The translations under genes and the position numbers were made by a program. Shown one piece after another: positions 3,577 to 52,645 of a stretch of DNA of 64,000 bases. The stretch is from a virus. The notes under the pieces are model-generated. The model did not search any database. It was not told the DNA's origin and was given only the letters and a program-made list of their open reading frames with translations. Each line of letters opens with the position of its first letter. The stretch's first letter is position 1. The stretch lies in the IMG/VR virus record IMGVR_UViG_3300049729_000039. One strand, 5' to 3'.

Positions 3577-3867
3577 ATGTCTAAAATTAGAATAAGAACG
3601 GTGCAATATTTTGAATTTTATTGCCCTGCATGCAAAAGAATACATACAGTTTCCGACATTGGAGGCTGGAGCGTAGGATATGATTTATTAAAACCCACAA
3701 TTACGCCATCGGTACTAAATCAGACACCTATTCTTAATGAAATTACAGGTGTTTATGAAATGAAACAAAGATGTCACCTAAATATTACCAATGGAATGAT
3801 TTATTATCATTCCGATAGTGCACATGAAATGGCGGGTCAAACAGTTGAGTTACCTGAAATATCGTAA
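3577..3867 (+). CDS. Small Cys/His protein, zinc-ribbon-like
   Basis: CPACKRIH near the N-terminus and RCHLNITNGMIYYHSDSAH near the C-terminus. Confidence 0.45.
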   Translation: MSKIRIRTVQYFEFYCPACKRIHTVSDIGGWSVGYDLLKPTITPSVLNQTPILNEITGVYEMKQRCHLNITNGMIYYHSDSAHEMAGQTVELPEIS

Positions 3868-4998: not shown

Positions 4999-5565
4999 CT
5001 ACTGAGTCGGCTGGCGATAAGAAAGTATTGGCCTGGGGGCGGAGACACCAAGCAGTTCTCTTACTGTCTGGATAAGATTAGCTTGCTGGCCTGCCGGTAA
5101 CTTAAATTCATCAGTATCTAATAAGGTTTCAAAACTTGGTATTGCTTCGATTATTAACGGTATAGCACGGGTAAGTCCATATATAAATACCTCTTTATTT
5201 TTCACCTCGAAAGAAATAGAATCGTCTATTTCGTTAACTTCTCCGGTTAATTCGTGTTCACCCATTCTTATGGGAACAAATACCAAATCTGTTTCGGTCT
5301 GTGAATAAATACGCACTGCGTCGCCAATCAAAGGGAATTGCATCGTAGCCACTGGAAGAGTGGCTATTGCTAAATTACTGTCATGGATAACAGGTGTAAC
5401 AGAATATCTTTTTAAATAGTCGTTGATAAAGGCTGGTTCCTGTTTAAAGATATTGAAGTAAATATCACCCAAAGCCATAGAAATCATACGGGATATAAGC
5501 CCCCGTGAGTTGATGCTATCGGGAGAAATTTGAATTATTAGATCAACGAGGTCAGATTTTATCAT
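4999..5565 (-). CDS. Hypothetical protein (third gene of the 6886->4999 operon)
   Basis: ATG ORF whose start overlaps the upstream stop. No motif recognised. Confidence 0.55.
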   Translation of the reverse strand: MIKSDLVDLIIQISPDSINSRGLISRMISMALGDIYFNIFKQEPAFINDYLKRYSVTPVIHDSNLAIATLPVATMQFPLIGDAVRIYSQTETDLVFVPIRMGEHELTGEVNEIDDSISFEVKNKEVFIYGLTRAIPLIIEAIPSFETLLDTDEFKLPAGQQANLIQTVRELLGVSAPRPILSYRQPTQ

Positions 5566-6986: not shown

Positions 6987-7373
6987 TCACATAGCCATTT
7001 TTATTCGCAGGTGGGTATTCAATAGGCTGATCTCTTTTCGAAAATCTGGCTCTGTATCCATCCTATCTTTGATAAGCTTCTTAGCGTGTTGTACCATTGT
7101 GTGTTGTTGTCCAAAATAAGCCATCACTTCTTTATTAGATAGGTGTGTGAGCTTATCGAGAAAATAGATAGCGACGTGTTTCGGTGAAACTAAGTCTCTG
7201 AATCGTCTTTTTTTCCTTATATCGGAATATTTAACGTCATAAAAAGAACATACTTCGGTTATGATCTTCATAGGGTCGGCTACTATAGGGTCTGATTTGA
7301 ACTGTGCGAGTAGTTCTTCGACAGTGACGGTAATTCCGTATTTGGTTTTCAGGTATTCGATTAGCTTGTTCAT
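6987..7373 (-). CDS. DnaA domain-IV-like HTH protein (no AAA+ domain)
   Basis: RFRDLVSPKHVAIYFLDKLTHLSNKEVMAYFGQQHTMVQHAKKLI parallels the DnaA C-terminal DNA-binding domain (..aR.iaMYL....s...IG..fg.dHTTVlHA). Confidence 0.65.
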   Translation of the reverse strand: MNKLIEYLKTKYGITVTVEELLAQFKSDPIVADPMKIITEVCSFYDVKYSDIRKKRRFRDLVSPKHVAIYFLDKLTHLSNKEVMAYFGQQHTMVQHAKKLIKDRMDTEPDFRKEISLLNTHLRIKMAM

Positions 7374-27530: not shown

Positions 27531-27725
27531 TCATTTTGTCCATTTTTCAATTACTTCGTTAAAGTCGTTAATTTGTTCAATTTCTTTGTCAATGATATGA
27601 TTGATATTTCTGTGCCATGAAATATCTGAATCGGGATGACCGTTTCTTGTTTCGATCTTATCCATTAGGTTTTTCTCGCAAATGGATAGTTGTTCTTGCA
27701 TTATTTCAATTAGTGATTTTTCCAT
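27531..27725 (-). CDS. Hypothetical protein
   Basis: 64-aa ATG ORF directly downstream of the primase-helicase gene. Confidence 0.5.
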   Translation of the reverse strand: MEKSLIEIMQEQLSICEKNLMDKIETRNGHPDSDISWHRNINHIIDKEIEQINDFNEVIEKWTK

Positions 27726-27727
27726 AA

Positions 27728-29551
27728 TTAAAAAGGTGTTTCGTCGTTTTTATCGGTAAAATTATCGTTAATTGTAATTGATTCAAATTGAACGTTTGGA
27801 TTTATTGTTTTCGGTGGTTCGGATATTGATATTTGACTTGTGTCTAATCGTAAATGTGAACCTGAAATCCATTCGTTATCCTGAAATTCTCTGTCACGAT
27901 TTAGTTCTGCATATCTACCAGTTTGGTAGTAATATTCAAATCTTACCATACCTCCACGGGTCTCTCCAAGATGCTTAAACTTTACTTTCTGTACGTGTAA
28001 TTCTACACAATCAGATTTTCTGTAAACACATAGTCCGTAAAATGCTTTGTTATACCAATTTGCTGAACCATTAATATCATAAAGAGTTGGAACCTCAAAA
28101 TCTCCGGCAGCATCTTTTTTCATTTTGGTAGGGTGCGCTACAACCATTATCAGCAAATCATTTTGTTTTGCGAATATTTCAATCGTATCAAGTGTTTTGG
28201 ATATATATTCAGTCTCGCTGTCTCCCTTTTCTCTTTTGTGTTCGAGTTTATTCCACGGATCAATGACAAGTATTTTTATTCCTTTGCGTTTTACTAAACT
28301 TTTTGCATGATTTAATATGCTGTGAATGCTAAGATTATCGTCCTCTGGATAAATAAAAAAGAAGTTTTCTTTAACATAATTTAATGCTTGTAGTAGTTCC
28401 GACTTATCAATATCTCGTTTACAAAAGTGTCGTCCAAGTACCCTGCTGACTATTTTAGAGACGTGTACTTTTGTCGGCCAGTTCTCTGGTGAAAAGTATG
28501 CTACTTTCCATCCATGTAAAATATTCAGTTGTTCACAAACTTCGTCTACCATTTCAGATTTACCATGTGATGGAATACCTGTCCAAATAGCAACCGCACT
28601 ACTTACCCATGAAATAACACCGTTCAGTTCTTTGTGTTTCAAATAAAGACCCGGTGGCATTCCGTGTTCCCAAAGATCAACGATACCCTCTAAATCATCA
28701 TCGACTGAGTAGATACCTGATAATGGAACGTCTTTGGCATTTTTGATACAATCTCGCAAGTCCAATACCCCATACTTAACAAGAAACTCATTTGCGTCCT
28801 TACAGTCCTTAAAATCAACTGTCTTGCATTTTTCTGAACCAAAACGTCTTATTAGTTCTTCTTTAAGTTTTCTTCCTGGTTCATCGTTGTCTGTTGCAAT
28901 ATAATGAACCTGTATGTGTTCAATATCGTCAATGACGTTGTCAATGTATGTCAGATTTTGATTTTGTTTACCTGCACCGTTAGGAACGCTTGTGGCAAAT
29001 TTAAACCCTGCTTCGTAAAAAGAAAGTTGGTCAAACTCTCCCTCACACCAAATACACTCTTTAAAATCTTTAAGATTATCTAAGTTGTAAGGGATTAATT
29101 CTGCATCTTTTACGAGTTTAAAATGTTTCTCTCCGTCTCTAAACTTTGTGTTTATTAATTCTTCGTTGCGAAAATAGTTGAAGCAAATACAATTAGCCTT
29201 TTTATTTATTTGTGGCATGTGCTCCAATTGTTCCGTAATCTGCATTTCAATTATGGTTCGTTTTGTTATTCCACGTTTCTCAAAATACAATACTGCCTTA
29301 TCCGAAAGGTCAGTATTATTAAAAACTGGCTTTATGTATTCCGGTTTCTTTTCGAGTGGTTCCGATTTTACAAACTTATACCCACAATTCCAACACTCCC
29401 CGCACCCTTTTGTAATATTGAATGAAAAGTCTTTTTTTGTTTTATTCTTTCGTGAATCGGTACATACGGGACATAATACGGATTGATTGCCGGCTTTTTT
29501 TGTAAAGACGACATCATAAATTGTTTCGTTATCAATGCAGTATAGTTCCAT
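27728..29551 (-). CDS. Bifunctional primase-helicase (T7 gp4-like: zinc finger + Toprim + DnaB/RecA-type NTPase)
   Basis: CPVCTDSRKN...CWNCGYK is the zinc finger, EGEFDQLS/VPNGAG/DNDEPG are Toprim motifs, Walker A is GIPSHGKSE, and Walker B is ILVIDPW. Confidence 0.85.
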   Translation of the reverse strand: MELYCIDNETIYDVVFTKKAGNQSVLCPVCTDSRKNKTKKDFSFNITKGCGECWNCGYKFVKSEPLEKKPEYIKPVFNNTDLSDKAVLYFEKRGITKRTIIEMQITEQLEHMPQINKKANCICFNYFRNEELINTKFRDGEKHFKLVKDAELIPYNLDNLKDFKECIWCEGEFDQLSFYEAGFKFATSVPNGAGKQNQNLTYIDNVIDDIEHIQVHYIATDNDEPGRKLKEELIRRFGSEKCKTVDFKDCKDANEFLVKYGVLDLRDCIKNAKDVPLSGIYSVDDDLEGIVDLWEHGMPPGLYLKHKELNGVISWVSSAVAIWTGIPSHGKSEMVDEVCEQLNILHGWKVAYFSPENWPTKVHVSKIVSRVLGRHFCKRDIDKSELLQALNYVKENFFFIYPEDDNLSIHSILNHAKSLVKRKGIKILVIDPWNKLEHKREKGDSETEYISKTLDTIEIFAKQNDLLIMVVAHPTKMKKDAAGDFEVPTLYDINGSANWYNKAFYGLCVYRKSDCVELHVQKVKFKHLGETRGGMVRFEYYYQTGRYAELNRDREFQDNEWISGSHLRLDTSQISISEPPKTINPNVQFESITINDNFTDKNDETPF

Positions 29552-46028: not shown

Positions 46029-46060
46029 TTTGCATTCATTCTAAATAATAACTATCTTTG
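46029..46060 (+). promoter_or_regulatory. Bacteroidota-type promoter (TTTG-N20-TATCTTTG)
   Basis: The spacer contains the half-motif cattctaaataat. The ATG at 46064 is 3 nt downstream, so the mRNA may be leaderless. Confidence 0.55.
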
Positions 46061-46063
46061 AAT

Positions 46064-46600
46064 ATGGAACTTATTGAACTTGGAGAAAACCTTGTTGTAG
46101 ATAAATCTAAATACAGCAAAGCAGTAAAAGAACTCAATAAGTTTCTTAAAGATTATGGATTGAGCAAAACTAATTTGCATTCATCTATATTTAGGTATGC
46201 GAAAATAAAATACGGTATTTTATTGAATGGAAAATCTGAGCTAGAATATCAGATATGGTTTGTTAATAAATTTCAGATAACCAAAAGAACAGAGGTAAAA
46301 ATACAAAAGCACAAATTTGTAAGCAACTTTACTCCACCGAGTAGAAAATTGGAATATTGGGAATTTTTACAAACTTCATATTGGTTTGGTATTAAAGATT
46401 TAGTTCTCAGGAGAGACAAACACAAGTGTATTGCTTGCGGATCAAAGAAATCATTACAAGTGCATCACAAGGTCTATACTCACCGATTTTCAGAACATAA
46501 ACACTTAGATGACTTAGAAACATTATGCGGAGATTGCCATAAATTCGTTCATAGTATAGATGAAAAACAAATGATAGAACAACATTTGAACTCAATCTAA
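46064..46600 (+). CDS. HNH endonuclease (free-standing)
   Basis: CIACGSKKSLQVHHKVY...HLDDLETLCGDCHKFVH. ATG at 46064; the track start at 46058 is TTG. Confidence 0.75.
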   Translation: MELIELGENLVVDKSKYSKAVKELNKFLKDYGLSKTNLHSSIFRYAKIKYGILLNGKSELEYQIWFVNKFQITKRTEVKIQKHKFVSNFTPPSRKLEYWEFLQTSYWFGIKDLVLRRDKHKCIACGSKKSLQVHHKVYTHRFSEHKHLDDLETLCGDCHKFVHSIDEKQMIEQHLNSI

Positions 46601-49531: not shown

Positions 49532-50611
49532 ATGATTGACATTGATGGCGAAAGAGTAAAACTCGATGCCAAGTACAAAGGAACAGACGAATTGTTGGTA
49601 GCTTTTGCAAAGGCACTGACGCAGATCAACAACCACTTCGACAGGTATCCATCTTTCAGACTTAAATGGGCTGAGAAATATACCAATAAGAACAAAGCCA
49701 CAGGCAAACTGGAACCAAAGGCAGCAGCTATCGTACGTTTTGAATCAGAGATTAATATAGGTATGGGAAACCATGTCGTTAACTACTATGAGAACAAACG
49801 AGTAAAAGACAACGAGACTATCTACGTCCCACACAGCGAGCTGTTCGATGGTAACATGATCTTTACTCGCAAAGACACCGAAAGACTTGCTTACTACCTG
49901 GTCTGTGAGCCACGTCTTAAGAGCGGGATGATGCTTATCGAAAACATCGAGGAAGATGCTTCGAAACTGGCAGTAACCAGAGGCCAGAATGCAGACCTGT
50001 TGTTCTATATTTACTCTGATGCTTCACCACTCGACGAAGCAAGAATGAGGGTTATTGCGTACAACTGGGGTATTGACATAACCAAATTTGCAACGCTTGA
50101 GTTGCTTAAAAACCAGTTGTATAATACCATTACCGCTGAAGAAGGTAGGAAACTGGGAGTTGCTATTGCAGAGTTCAAAAAACAAACAATGGGGCTTACG
50201 GACGAAATGAAGGCTGTTTCCCTTGTTTCGCAGGGTGTTTACAAAAAACTAATCGAGTTCAATCACGCTGAATCAGCATGGTTCTGGAAGGGCGACAAAG
50301 ATGAACCTATCTTAAGAATCCCAGTGAACGAGCGAAGTGATGAAATGCAGATTCGTAAACGTCTTGCTTCGTTTTTAATCGCTTCTAAAAAGCTATATCT
50401 ATTGCAGGAAGCATTAGGTATCACAGAGGACGAGGATATGAATGAAACATCTATTGACGTCAAACTGGATAAGTTTACGGACTTTGAGAAGTTGTCATGG
50501 GTTGAATTGAAACGTGCTTTGAAAAAAGGAAATGTAGCGTTTGATAAAACAGACAAGATGCCGAGACTTATTGAACTCTGTAAAGAAGCGTTTGGAAACG
50601 TGGAACCTTAA
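49532..50611 (+). CDS. Hypothetical head-module protein
   Basis: 359-aa ATG ORF. Confidence 0.55.
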   Translation: MIDIDGERVKLDAKYKGTDELLVAFAKALTQINNHFDRYPSFRLKWAEKYTNKNKATGKLEPKAAAIVRFESEINIGMGNHVVNYYENKRVKDNETIYVPHSELFDGNMIFTRKDTERLAYYLVCEPRLKSGMMLIENIEEDASKLAVTRGQNADLLFYIYSDASPLDEARMRVIAYNWGIDITKFATLELLKNQLYNTITAEEGRKLGVAIAEFKKQTMGLTDEMKAVSLVSQGVYKKLIEFNHAESAWFWKGDKDEPILRIPVNERSDEMQIRKRLASFLIASKKLYLLQEALGITEDEDMNETSIDVKLDKFTDFEKLSWVELKRALKKGNVAFDKTDKMPRLIELCKEAFGNVEP

Positions 50612-50955: not shown

Positions 50956-50986
50956 TTGCATTGACTAAAAAATTGTCATACATTTG
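50956..50986 (+). promoter_or_regulatory. Bacteroidota-type promoter (TTG-N20-TACATTTG) driving the RNA locus
   Basis: cTTGcattgactaaaaaattgtcaTACATTTG. No ORF follows. Confidence 0.6.
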
Positions 50987-51085
50987 TATCGTATTCCACA
51001 CGTGGAAAAACGCTAGTCTCCCATCAGACCGTAAATATTGGATAAACCGATCTGATTTGATGCCCATCTATTCGGGTCGGTAAAT

Positions 51086-51159
51086 GGGTCACTAGCTCAG
51101 TTGGTAGAGCATCTGTTTTGCAAGCAGAGGGTCTTGAGTTCGAATCTCAAGTGTATCCA
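51086..51159 (+). tRNA. tRNA-Ala(UGC)-like, with a 1-nt bulge in the acceptor stem
   Basis: D-arm is GCTC-AGTTGGTA-GAGC. Anticodon arm is TCTGT-TTTGCAA-GCAGA (anticodon TGC at 51119-51121). T-arm is TTGAG-TTCGAAT-CTCAA. The acceptor pairs GGGTCAC with GTG(T)ATCC and keeps G3-U70 and A73. No CCA is encoded. Confidence 0.6.
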
Positions 51160-51490
51160 CAAATAAGTTCTTTAAAATACTAAATCATTCAGCCAGCGGG
51201 GAGACCTATCCTAGTGTTATATCGATCAATGGCTAGGGGATTCGTAGTATTTATTATTACGACGCAGGCTGAATGATTAAAATATTGGTAATATTCGTGC
51301 GGTGGCAGACACTTATCGAATTGGTTACACACCTAACATAAGGTCTCGTAGGTGGTGAATAAGGTCAAACGGTGGACGGTTGGTGAGACAAAGCGTCCGA
51401 AGTCATAATAACTGATCAGATTGTGATGGGATTCCGAATAAATGTAACTTGAATATTACCAACGTTCTTTAAAATAATAGTAGTGAGATT

Positions 51491-51534
51491 ATCGACTATG
51501 ATGTAAGACGACGGTTCGAATCCGTCATACTCCA
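51491..51534 (+). ncRNA. Candidate acceptor piece of a permuted tmRNA-like RNA (T-arm + 3' acceptor strand)
   Basis: GAC-GACGG-TTCGAAT-CCGTC-ATACTCC-A. No matching 5' acceptor strand lies upstream, but a perfect one lies downstream at 51596-51602. Confidence 0.4.
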
Positions 51535-51595
51535 CTCAACTCATTGGCTGTGAGAGTGATAAGATTGATTAATGATCGCTTATCACAAATTATTC

Positions 51596-51757
51596 GGGGT
51601 ATTAAGGCTTTTCGATTGCATTAAAGAGGGTAACATAAAGAAGCTACTATCGCCTAAACGGCAAATCAATACAATTAAACCAAGAATTAGAAATGGCTGC
51701 ATAGTCGTTTCATTCGGTTAAGAGAGGTAAGTTAGACTTGCTTCTCTTTTCTTTTTT
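51596..51757 (+). ncRNA. Candidate coding piece of a permuted tmRNA-like RNA
   Basis: GGGGTAT pairs with ATACTCC over 7 bp, including G3-U70. It is followed by TAAGGCTTTTCGAT (compare tmRNA GGnUUYGAC), then a short frame GGC...ATG GCT GCA TAG (51660-51704) ending in Ala-Ala, then a terminator. Confidence 0.4.
51720..51757 (+). terminator. Rho-independent terminator closing the RNA locus
   Basis: agagaggtaag-ttaga-cttgcttctct (11 bp including two G-U pairs), followed by tttcttttttg. Confidence 0.7.
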
Positions 51758-51768
51758 GTCTATCTTTG
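51738..51768 (+). promoter_or_regulatory. Bacteroidota-type promoter (TTG-N20-TATCTTTG) of the tail operon
   Basis: The TTG sits inside the terminator's 3' arm and TATCTTTG is at 51761-51768. A 121-nt leader precedes the ATG at 51890. Confidence 0.6.
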
Positions 51769-51889
51769 TAGGAGATTGGGTGGTGTGAGAAAAAACTGTA
51801 ATCAGGTGAGACGGAACCTGACATTAAACAAAAAACGCTTCAGCGCAGAAGTGCGGAAGCAACCACCACCCGATCTTAACTTATAAGAT

Positions 51890-52645
51890 ATGATTGATAG
51901 GCACGTTTTCGAGAAGCAGTACATGGATCTGGACACTGATGGGCGCAACTTACCCCTCAATGCCACGAGGGAGGTGTATAACATGCGCAGTTCAAACACT
52001 TCATCCAACGGAAAAGGGTGTATGGAAGCGGTTAAAAGCAACGTAGACATCACCACACTCGATTTAAACGTTGGTCATCCTGGGTCTGTTCCTACCGTCA
52101 CCTATTACAATTCTACTCAATCACAGACGTTCGTTCGTAACAACTGCGGGTCTGGATACTCTGGAAGCACAGTTACCTATACAGTCCCCTACGCTACATA
52201 TTCGTCTACGATAAGTCAAATAGCAGCAGACCAGATGGCACTTGATGATATATCAGCAAACGGACAAAACAACGCCAACTCAACAGGAACCTGTACCATT
52301 ATTCCTAGTGGGACACTGAGTGCATATTTCATCAAAGGTGATGGAGCACCCGGTGGTTATCTTAAAATATCCAAGAACGGAACGCTGATAATCGACATCG
52401 AAAGATACACTGGTTCTGATTCGTTCTCGATAACCGACGGTGATGCAATACATATCGAAGCGTGTTCAGCAACAAGTTCGGGAGTAGGTAACTCTATCAG
52501 TGTAGGAATCTACTCTTCTGTAAGCGGAGAACTGTGGTCTACGACACTTTCAGGATATAATCAAGTAATCACACACGACTACACATATCACACGGCAGAC
52601 GGTACCATTTCAGTCCAGTGCGGTGTTCCAATATTATACTCATGA
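51890..52645 (+). CDS. Tail/virion protein with a Cys-flanked SQ..A....A module
   Basis: 251-aa ATG ORF. RNNCGSGYSGSTVTYTVPYATYSSTISQIAADQMALDDISANGQNNANSTGTC resembles a module I recall from Bacteroidota surface/phage proteins. Unverified. Confidence 0.55.
   Translation: MIDRHVFEKQYMDLDTDGRNLPLNATREVYNMRSSNTSSNGKGCMEAVKSNVDITTLDLNVGHPGSVPTVTYYNSTQSQTFVRNNCGSGYSGSTVTYTVPYATYSSTISQIAADQMALDDISANGQNNANSTGTCTIIPSGTLSAYFIKGDGAPGGYLKISKNGTLIIDIERYTGSDSFSITDGDAIHIEACSATSSGVGNSISVGIYSSVSGELWSTTLSGYNQVITHDYTYHTADGTISVQCGVPILYS

Follow-up and report, generated by a model that had tools for sequence, protein, structure and literature searches.

At positions 51477-51757 (+) of a 64,000-nucleotide stretch of viral DNA (IMG/VR record IMGVR_UViG_3300049729_000039; the whole stretch is called the window below) lies an RNA gene in which an acceptor piece, a spacer of 61 nucleotides (nt), a coding piece with a 14-codon tag frame and an intrinsic terminator follow one another from 5′ to 3′ (Table 1). 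An initial annotation, made from the letters alone, had proposed that this locus is a circularly permuted, two-piece transfer-messenger RNA (tmRNA; gene ssrA) of a Bacteroidota phage. A reading of the sequence from 51200 to 52100 finds all the elements it had described in their places, among them GACGG-TTCGAAT-CCGTC-ATACTCC-A at 51510-51534, in which the T loop TTCGAAT is canonical, and TAAGGCTTTTCGAT, which begins right after GGGGTAT. Together, the separated strands are predicted to form a tRNA-Ala-like domain with G3:U70 and the discriminator A73. CCA is unencoded in the acceptor piece, as it is in the neighbouring tRNA-Ala; the helix termed a stops 9 nt 5′ of the resume codon, and the terminator hairpin follows the stop codon at a distance of 15 nt. 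As argued below from sequence comparison, the locus is very probably a functional, circularly permuted tmRNA gene of a lytic-type phage infecting Bacteroidota. This tmRNA lineage is small, phage-borne and present in public data, and no paper describing it was found.

Table 1. Features of the permuted tmRNA gene and of the RNA-gene island upstream of it (positions in the window)
Feature	Position	Strand	Basis or remark
TACATTTG, Bacteroidota-type -7 promoter box (TAnnTTTG)	50979-50986	+	predicted promoter, upstream of the RNA-gene island
tRNA-Ala(UGC)	51086-51158	+	first RNA gene of the island, no encoded CCA; ARAGORN; Rfam tRNA 54.8 bits
GTTCTTTAAAATA motif	51464-51476	+	abuts 5′ end of acceptor piece; candidate processing site or RNA-gene-specific start signal
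Acceptor piece	51477-51534	+	sequence reading, Infernal alignment, cofolding, covariation
Helix a, 5′ strand	51477-51484	+	within acceptor piece
GAGA	51485-51488	+	within acceptor piece
Helix b strand	51489-51493	+	within acceptor piece
P2 strand	51499-51506	+	within acceptor piece
GAC	51507-51509	+	immediately 5′ of T arm
T arm, loop TTCGAAT	51510-51526	+	GACGG-TTCGAAT-CCGTC
Acceptor 3′ strand ATACTCC	51527-51533	+	within acceptor piece
Discriminator A73	51534	+	end of acceptor piece
Intervening segment (spacer)	51535-51595	+	hairpin 1 and hairpin 2
Hairpin 1, loop TGGCT	51540-51554	+	in spacer
Hairpin 2, GTGATAAG (51556-51563) / CTTATCAC (51579-51586)	51556-51586	+	in spacer
Coding piece, 5′ part	51596-51659	+	Infernal alignment, cofolding, covariation
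Acceptor 5′ strand GGGGTAT	51596-51602	+	61 nt 3′ of A73
D-loop analogue TAAGGCTTTTCGA	51603-51615	+	coding piece
P2 partner strand	51616-51623	+	coding piece
Helix b partner strand	51629-51633	+	coding piece
Conserved CATAAAGAA	between helix b and helix a strands of coding piece	+	conservation
Helix a partner strand	51643-51650	+	coding piece
Linker CGCCTAAAC	after helix a strand, before resume codon	+	coding piece
Tag frame GGC...GCA TAG, GKSIQLNQELEMAA	51660-51704	+	resume codon GGC, stop TAG; homologue comparison
Intrinsic terminator, 13-pair hairpin (51720-51748) then T run	51720-51757	+	3′ end of coding piece

At permissive thresholds, Infernal aligns the full length of the Rfam model RF04321 (tmRNA_permuted, model positions 1-213) to 51484-51704 at 36.1 bits (E = 2.6e-5, with 1.4 kb searched), the tag end of the model falling on GCUGCAUAG; cyano_tmRNA scores 27.8 bits. 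Given this end-to-end alignment, the arrangement of elements in the window goes beyond chance. The curated gathering cut-off of RF04321 is 47 bits, so that the comparison with Rfam, which had been proposed as a check, gives a full-length match with a score below the cut-off in the window and scores above it in two syntenic homologues (L003, 50.4 bits; L010, 48.4 bits); a third, L007, reaches 42 bits. In L007, ARAGORN reports a permuted tmRNA (tmRNA*) with the tag GNNYRLQPELKAAA at a position equivalent to that of the window gene, and the tag frame that it reports is the frame found by comparison of the homologues.

These relatives were reached through the protein database and the contigs behind its entries, as a search of IMG/VR for loci related by two upstream proteins returned nothing. 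The 359-amino-acid protein encoded just upstream (49532-50611) has 12 homologues with 51-93% identity, on contigs with the gene order of the window. In most of them, a variable non-coding stretch of ~0.8-1.9 kb precedes the DUF5977/LVIVD genes; the gap is shorter in L006 (288 nt, without a tmRNA), L008, L009 and L011 are without any RNA island, and the contig of L012 ends inside the island. A pattern scan built on the conserved block 5′ of the tag gave one true match among six in IMG/VR (L014), two matches in JGI metagenomes (L019 and L020, the latter identical to L007) and none among 185,579 species represented by one genome each. An exact scan of IMG/VR for the T arm and acceptor of the window returned nothing, and when the locus and a stretch of 24 kb were compared with GenBank phages by blastn and megablast, only tRNAs matched. 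The comparison therefore covers seven distinct sequences, namely the window and six homologues, all metagenomic (L001, L003, L007, L010, L014 and L019).

The 5′/3′ strands of the acceptor stem read GGGGTAT/ATACTCC in the window, GGGGCAT/ATGCTCC in L001, GGGGCTG/CAGCTCC in L014, GGGGAAT/ATTCTCC in L019, GGGGGTG/CACTTCC in L003, GGGGGCG/CGCTTCC in L010 and GTGGGTG/CACCTAC in L007. All seven pairs are standard in all seven sequences, while pairs 2-71, 5-68, 6-67 and 7-66 change on both sides; the complementarity, G3:U70 and A73 on which the initial annotation was built are thus kept in every lineage, with compensatory changes. A core alignment of 95 columns was assembled from hand-picked structural modules of equal length, into which MAFFT introduced no gaps. 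In this alignment, standard pairs account for 97.0% of the cells, a level that none of 500 shuffles reaches (74.2 ± 2.1), and both sides change in 19 of the 33 pairs. Pairing is complete (100%) in the acceptor stem, the T stem and helix a and amounts to 89% in P2 and 97% in helix b, and all five T-stem pairs covary. A terminator-equivalent hairpin followed by a T run is found in all homologues.

A long interrupted helix is predicted to join the two halves; its three segments, P2, b and a, have their strands in different pieces (Table 1). Both sides change in 10 of the 21 pairs of these segments, and each of the three helices has compensatory changes. When the putative mature pieces are cofolded as two strands, the acceptor stem is recovered in every one of the seven sequences, and P2 together with helices a and b in four (the window, L001, L003 and L007). 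A different tie between the pieces had been suggested, in which CGACTATG (51493-51500) would pair with CATAGTCG (51700-51707). This complementarity is present in the window but is lost in L001, the closest relative, where TTCTGGTTTTAG replaces CGACTATG while CATAGTCG remains; it was rejected as an inter-piece helix, the pieces being joined instead by P2 and helices a and b.

The predicted tag frame is equally constant: in all seven sequences it has exactly 14 codons, beginning with Gly and ending with Ala-Ala, followed by a stop codon (TAA or TAG), and it is always preceded by ...TAA(A/C)C. The expectation that the frame starting with Gly would be conserved is therefore borne out, while the alternative frame that had been considered, ANQYN, varies in length and has no Ala-Ala end in the relatives. 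The tag of the window is GKSIQLNQELEMAA, those of further homologues are GKSIQLHQELEMAA, GKIINMNTEVKAAA, GKTISLYPEVKAAA and GNVYQLNPEVKAAA, and GNNYRLQPELKAAA is common to L007 and L010; Gly1, a hydrophobic residue 6, Glu9, Leu/Val10 and the terminal Ala-Ala are conserved. L007 and L010 share a tag yet differ in their acceptor and T arms, and L014 has P2, helix and spacer sequences as in L001 but another tag.

Several results weigh against a functional tmRNA gene. In the window, ARAGORN finds tRNA-Ala(UGC) alone and no tmRNA, so that of this second suggested check only the call in L007 is positive; at the gathering threshold, Rfam also returns the tRNA-Ala only, tmRNA_permuted scoring under its cut-off. 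The covariation rests on seven distinct sequences of metagenomic origin, and the fall to 38-57% paired when partners in the core alignment are slid by 1-3 columns is an inflated contrast, because the sequences from which the modules were picked by hand are those that had suggested the structure; the number of compensatory pairs is independent of this choice. The T loop departs from the canonical form in some relatives (TGCAATT, CTCGCTA, GTCGCTC and one of 6 nt). A tblastn search of the 64-kb window with E. coli SmpB as the query detected no SmpB gene, and function would therefore depend on the host protein. Described tmRNAs typically carry several pseudoknots, and pseudoknot 1 of standard tmRNAs sits at the place where helix a ends here. 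In the present RNA no pseudoknot is apparent, cofolding having given nested helices only and no dedicated pseudoknot search having been run. Pseudoknots are usual in the tmRNA family, yet dispensable or replaceable.

Some of these features would also suit a tmRNA-derived RNA that does not support productive trans-translation, either sequestering host SmpB, AlaRS or ribosomes as a decoy or serving as the source of a phage-specific tag with a non-proteolytic fate. The apparent loss of all pseudoknots, the degenerate T loops of some relatives, the failure of the tblastn search to find a phage SmpB, and a tag that is longer than, and unlike, the GENNYALAA of the host all point in this direction, and a tmRNA without a coding sequence (CDS), reported for mycobacteriophage DS6A (cited in PMC11915505), offers a precedent for a decoy. 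A pure decoy needs no frame, yet the 14 codons, the Gly start, the Ala-Ala end, the stop and the resume context are kept in all seven sequences, and G3:U70 and A73 are invariant; we consider this explanation improbable.

Phages that integrate into tRNA or tmRNA genes carry 3′ fragments of such genes, and the silence of ARAGORN in the window would suit a leftover fragment of this kind (an attP core or a recombination scar) to which GGGGTAT is a chance complement. It is, however, very hard to reconcile with a 5′ partner that covaries with the 3′ strand at four pairs in seven lineages, with the conservation of P2, helices a and b, the tag frame and the terminator, or with the lack of an integrase among the 15 window proteins profiled; nor are the homologues assembly duplicates of one sequence, because their flanking proteins share between 51% and 93% identity. 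On the covariation, the idea of an attP or tRNA fragment was ruled out. There is as little to recommend a small protein gene with incidental tRNA-like pairing, although the list of open reading frames (ORFs) does include one of 49 amino acids at 51572-51721: that ORF is in another frame than the 14 conserved codons, the conserved frame lacks both a start codon and a ribosome-binding context, its GGC directly follows the conserved structured region, and upstream of GGC conservation tracks RNA helices rather than codons. A permuted two-piece tmRNA in a Bacteroidota phage, as initially proposed, is supported by the full-length RF04321 match, the scores above the cut-off in two relatives, the ARAGORN call in L007, the covariation and the conserved 14-codon frame. 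As ARAGORN and the Rfam cut-off both overlook the window copy, the totals of tmRNAs in phage and metagenome annotation are probably too low.

If the locus functions as a tmRNA gene, it would be co-transcribed with the neighbouring RNA genes from the TAnnTTTG promoter near 50979. RNase P would cut 5′ of G1 (G51596), while the tRNA 3′-end pathway would trim after A73 (A51534) and the CCA-adding enzyme would supply CCA; the spacer would have to be removed if the RNA is to be charged. The products, an acceptor RNA of ~61 nt and a coding RNA of ~160 nt, would remain paired with each other. This complex would be charged by the host AlaRS and delivered by host SmpB and EF-Tu to ribosomes stalled on broken mRNAs, where translation would restart at GGC, appending Ala-GKSIQLNQELEMAA, and the ribosome would be freed at TAG. 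Tagged products would end in ...AGKSIQLNQELEMAA, the Ala-Ala end marking them for proteolysis. The phage would benefit in that ribosomes would not stay trapped during infection, a time at which extensive mRNA damage is to be expected.

Two-piece tmRNAs (Keiler et al. 2000; Sharkady and Williams 2004, as cited in PMC9004378 and PMC11915505) are known from Alphaproteobacteria, one betaproteobacterial lineage, Cyanobacteria and mitochondria. The model RF04321, in which RF01849, RF01850 and RF01851 are merged, draws on the first three of these groups (PMC11915505). The window gene resembles the forms of these three lineages in its order of acceptor piece, spacer and coding piece, in its predicted tRNA-Ala-like domain made from separated strands with G3:U70 and A73, in the tag frame downstream, in the joining of the pieces by base pairing and in the full-length match to RF04321. 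It departs from them in its resume codon, GGC (Gly) against the RF04321 consensus GCA (Ala), in its score below the family cut-off, in having no apparent pseudoknots, in its conserved spacer hairpin, and in being carried by phages whose host phylum uses a one-piece tmRNA. In the case of phages, 53 unique two-piece tmRNAs have been counted by ARAGORN, mostly in marine phages, and a permuted ssrA is carried by lytic phages such as the OM43 phage Melnitz, pelagiphages and cyanophages (PMC9004378); the window gene would be a similar case, with no integrase evident among the 15 proteins profiled. The marine phage tmRNAs group with those of the lineages of their hosts or of a former host (PMC9004378), while the host phylum of the window has the standard form; the window gene has no glutamine riboswitch and no blastn similarity to them.

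A closer parallel is provided by Maribacter phage Panino (PP540027), a flavobacterial podophage with a distantly related portal, whose tmRNA is permuted (ARAGORN tmRNA*, tag GKVMNVSFAPTVRQFA; RF04321 62.2 bits, 27590-27798). The record annotates the gene as "transfer-messenger RNA SsrA" only, and the tmRNA passages of the Panino paper treat it as a possible integration site or integration-related copy, with no mention of permutation in those passages. The statement of the initial annotation that no permuted tmRNA is known in a Bacteroidota phage was therefore too strong, because two-piece tmRNAs are known in many phages (PMC9004378) and Panino already has one; what stands is that no paper was found describing the lineage of the window. 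The Panino and window RNAs have in common the Gly resume codon, G3:U70, A73, the long interrupted inter-piece helix, the lack of apparent pseudoknots and a similar distance from G1 to the resume codon (61st nt in Panino, 65th in the window), and the Panino gene sits in a tRNA array, between Asp and Thr. They differ in the tag (16 amino acids with a Phe-Ala end against 14 codons with an Ala-Ala end), in the spacer (39 nt with an unrelated hairpin in Panino) and in genomic position; blastn finds no primary-sequence similarity between the two.

The tRNA array of Panino (L142 25461-28224) shares much of its order, Pro, Glu, Gln, His, Leu, Leu, Arg, Ala, Lys, Ile, Gly, Asp, Thr, Val, with that of Cellulophaga phage phi4:1 (L147 37196-39711), which has an extra Met before Asp, Thr and Val; of the two, only Panino has a permuted tmRNA. 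Phages phi4:1 and phi38:1 are entered as "Permuted" and "linear", respectively, in Table S1 of PMC9004378. In phi4:1, the ARAGORN tmRNA* call (L147 39919-40580, i.e., NC_021788 89919-90580) is probably a false positive, because it overlaps tRNA-Tyr, tRNA-Ser and tRNA-Asn genes and has no RF04321 match; in phi38:1, no tmRNA was found in the tRNA cluster, the region scanned.

The cellular tmRNAs of Bacteroidota are of the standard one-piece form. A back-translated GENNYALAA pattern occurs in at least 120 genome contigs, nearly all of Bacteroidota, and ARAGORN finds one-piece tmRNAs of 366-398 nt with this tag in Aquimarina, Flavobacterium, Segatella, Cellulophaga, Maribacter and Sphingobacterium. 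They share with the phage RNAs the GGC-Gly resume codon and a 5′ region of the form GGGG..GA.TGG.TTTGACAG; in Aquimarina and Flavobacterium, the resume context TAAAC|GGC is that of the window linker, and the NNY motif of the host tag recurs in the tags of L007 and L010. They differ in having pseudoknots and a tag of 9 amino acids, where the phage RNAs have none apparent and 14 codons. An nhmmer profile of 114 host tmRNA 5′ parts matches Panino (E = 0.001), L003 (0.33) and L010 (0.86) but not the window, a marginal similarity limited to the 5′ tRNA-like strand.

The Gly resume codon shared with the one-piece forms hints at an independent permutation. Tentatively, the phage RNAs and that of Panino may represent a further permutation, phage-only and independent, of a Bacteroidota-type one-piece tmRNA with a Gly resume codon, giving a very small, pseudoknot-free form that encodes a tag; we hold this as a serious possibility rather than as the probable origin. 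Otherwise, descriptions of permuted tmRNA genes come from a small number of bacterial lineages, from some organelles and from phages whose bacterial hosts have such genes. A phage-borne permuted form in a phylum with a one-piece cellular tmRNA would, if true, add one more independent solution, and at the same time a natural minimal tmRNA, made of a tRNA-like domain, one helix and a tag, with a bearing on the purpose of pseudoknots. For 29,415 Bacteroidota assemblies, a tmRNA database has 48 instances recorded as permuted (PMC11915505, Supplementary Table 2), and some of these may be binned phage contigs of the kind represented by the window.

The spacer had been expected to be an excised linker with a hairpin of its own. 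The 8-bp hairpin (hairpin 2) is present, but the segment is not neutral: five different stems occur among the sequences, all of them pairing, and the loop (A)GATTGATTAATGATCG is kept in six of the seven, L007 having an unrelated spacer of 130 nt. The hairpin with the loop GATTGATTAATGATCG may thus be a functional by-product RNA or a processing signal rather than a discarded linker. At the other end of the acceptor piece, GTTCTTTAAAATA lies directly 5′ of helix a in six of the seven homologues, its place being taken in L010 by a tRNA-like 3′ end; the flush junction of helix a with either element fits a processed 5′ end. In the 64 kb, GTTCTTTAAAATA has two copies, at 51167-51179 and 51464-51476, both inside the RNA island. 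The motif punctuates the RNA genes of the island and is present too in L001, L003, L007, L012, L014 and L019.

Within the tRNA-like domain, a GG in the D-loop analogue accompanies canonical T loops (TTCRAnT) in the window, in relatives and in Panino (L142 27620-27700), while L003 and L010, with the T loop [CG]TCGCT[AC], carry AATTGATT in the D-loop analogue and L001, with TGCAATT, carries ACAAGCG. This pattern looks like co-variation of a tertiary contact.

Upstream, the block around TACATTTG is conserved in L010 and L012, and TACATTTG is presumably the promoter of a polycistronic transcript comprising tRNA-Ala, two structured RNAs and the tmRNA precursor. The first of these RNAs, ~105 nt long, lies between tRNA-Ala and the tmRNA at 51185-51288 (L012 2119-2222); it is closed by the stem TCATTCAG/CTGAATGA and contains a three-way junction, compensatory changes between the two copies affect 7 of its 32 predicted pairs, and it has no Rfam match at E <= 10. 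The second, of ~170-200 nt, lies at 51292-51462 (L001 7262-7458, L010 3788-3960), with the closing stem TTGGTAATATTC/GAATATTACCAA, highly conserved internal blocks and compensatory changes in 5 of 40 predicted pairs; it also has no Rfam match. A group I intron or a split tRNA was considered for these 330 nt and rejected, Intron_gpI giving no match at E <= 10 and the stretch containing two separate conserved RNAs. With its conserved, unclassified structured RNAs, the island that holds the tmRNA gene makes the locus a useful entry to the RNA biology of Bacteroidota phages.

Ahead of the first tRNA of the island, a hairpin at 51046-51083 has a covarying stem and the conserved loop GATGCCCATC; it recurs in L001 (~7202-7240), L006, L007 (~5070-5105) and L010 (~3612-3650), and TTTTAAAC follows it in the relatives. 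A tRNA-like sequence with a long variable arm (GGGTTGGCAGAGTGG...GTCCGAATCTAGCACCCATTCCA) is found in L010 (4140-4227), where it adjoins the 5′ end of the tmRNA acceptor piece, and in L012 (2240-2316, cut by the contig end); ARAGORN makes no call on either copy. L006 (7300-7400) and L019 (minus strand, ~800-735) share the non-coding element TTCAGGCGTATGCCGGTGAGAAGTG.AGTCGTATAA.ATGGGACGACATTTGAGACGAAA, which occurs in islands without the two structured RNAs of the window.

The window encodes a terminase large subunit, a portal, a primase/helicase and virion proteins, and blastn and megablast find no close relative of it among GenBank phages. TAnnTTTG occurs 124 times, against 79 ± 8 in shuffles (0 of 100 reach 124), often just 5′ of gene starts, and the portal is ~23% identical to those of Flavobacterium, Cellulophaga, Tenacibaculum and Maribacter podophages. 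The enrichment of the box and the portal relatives make a Bacteroidota host a well-supported prediction. An HNH endonuclease gene lies at 46058-46600, between the portal and the capsid-region genes, and L006 and L010 have HNH genes elsewhere in the same module; these differing positions suggest mobile insertions.

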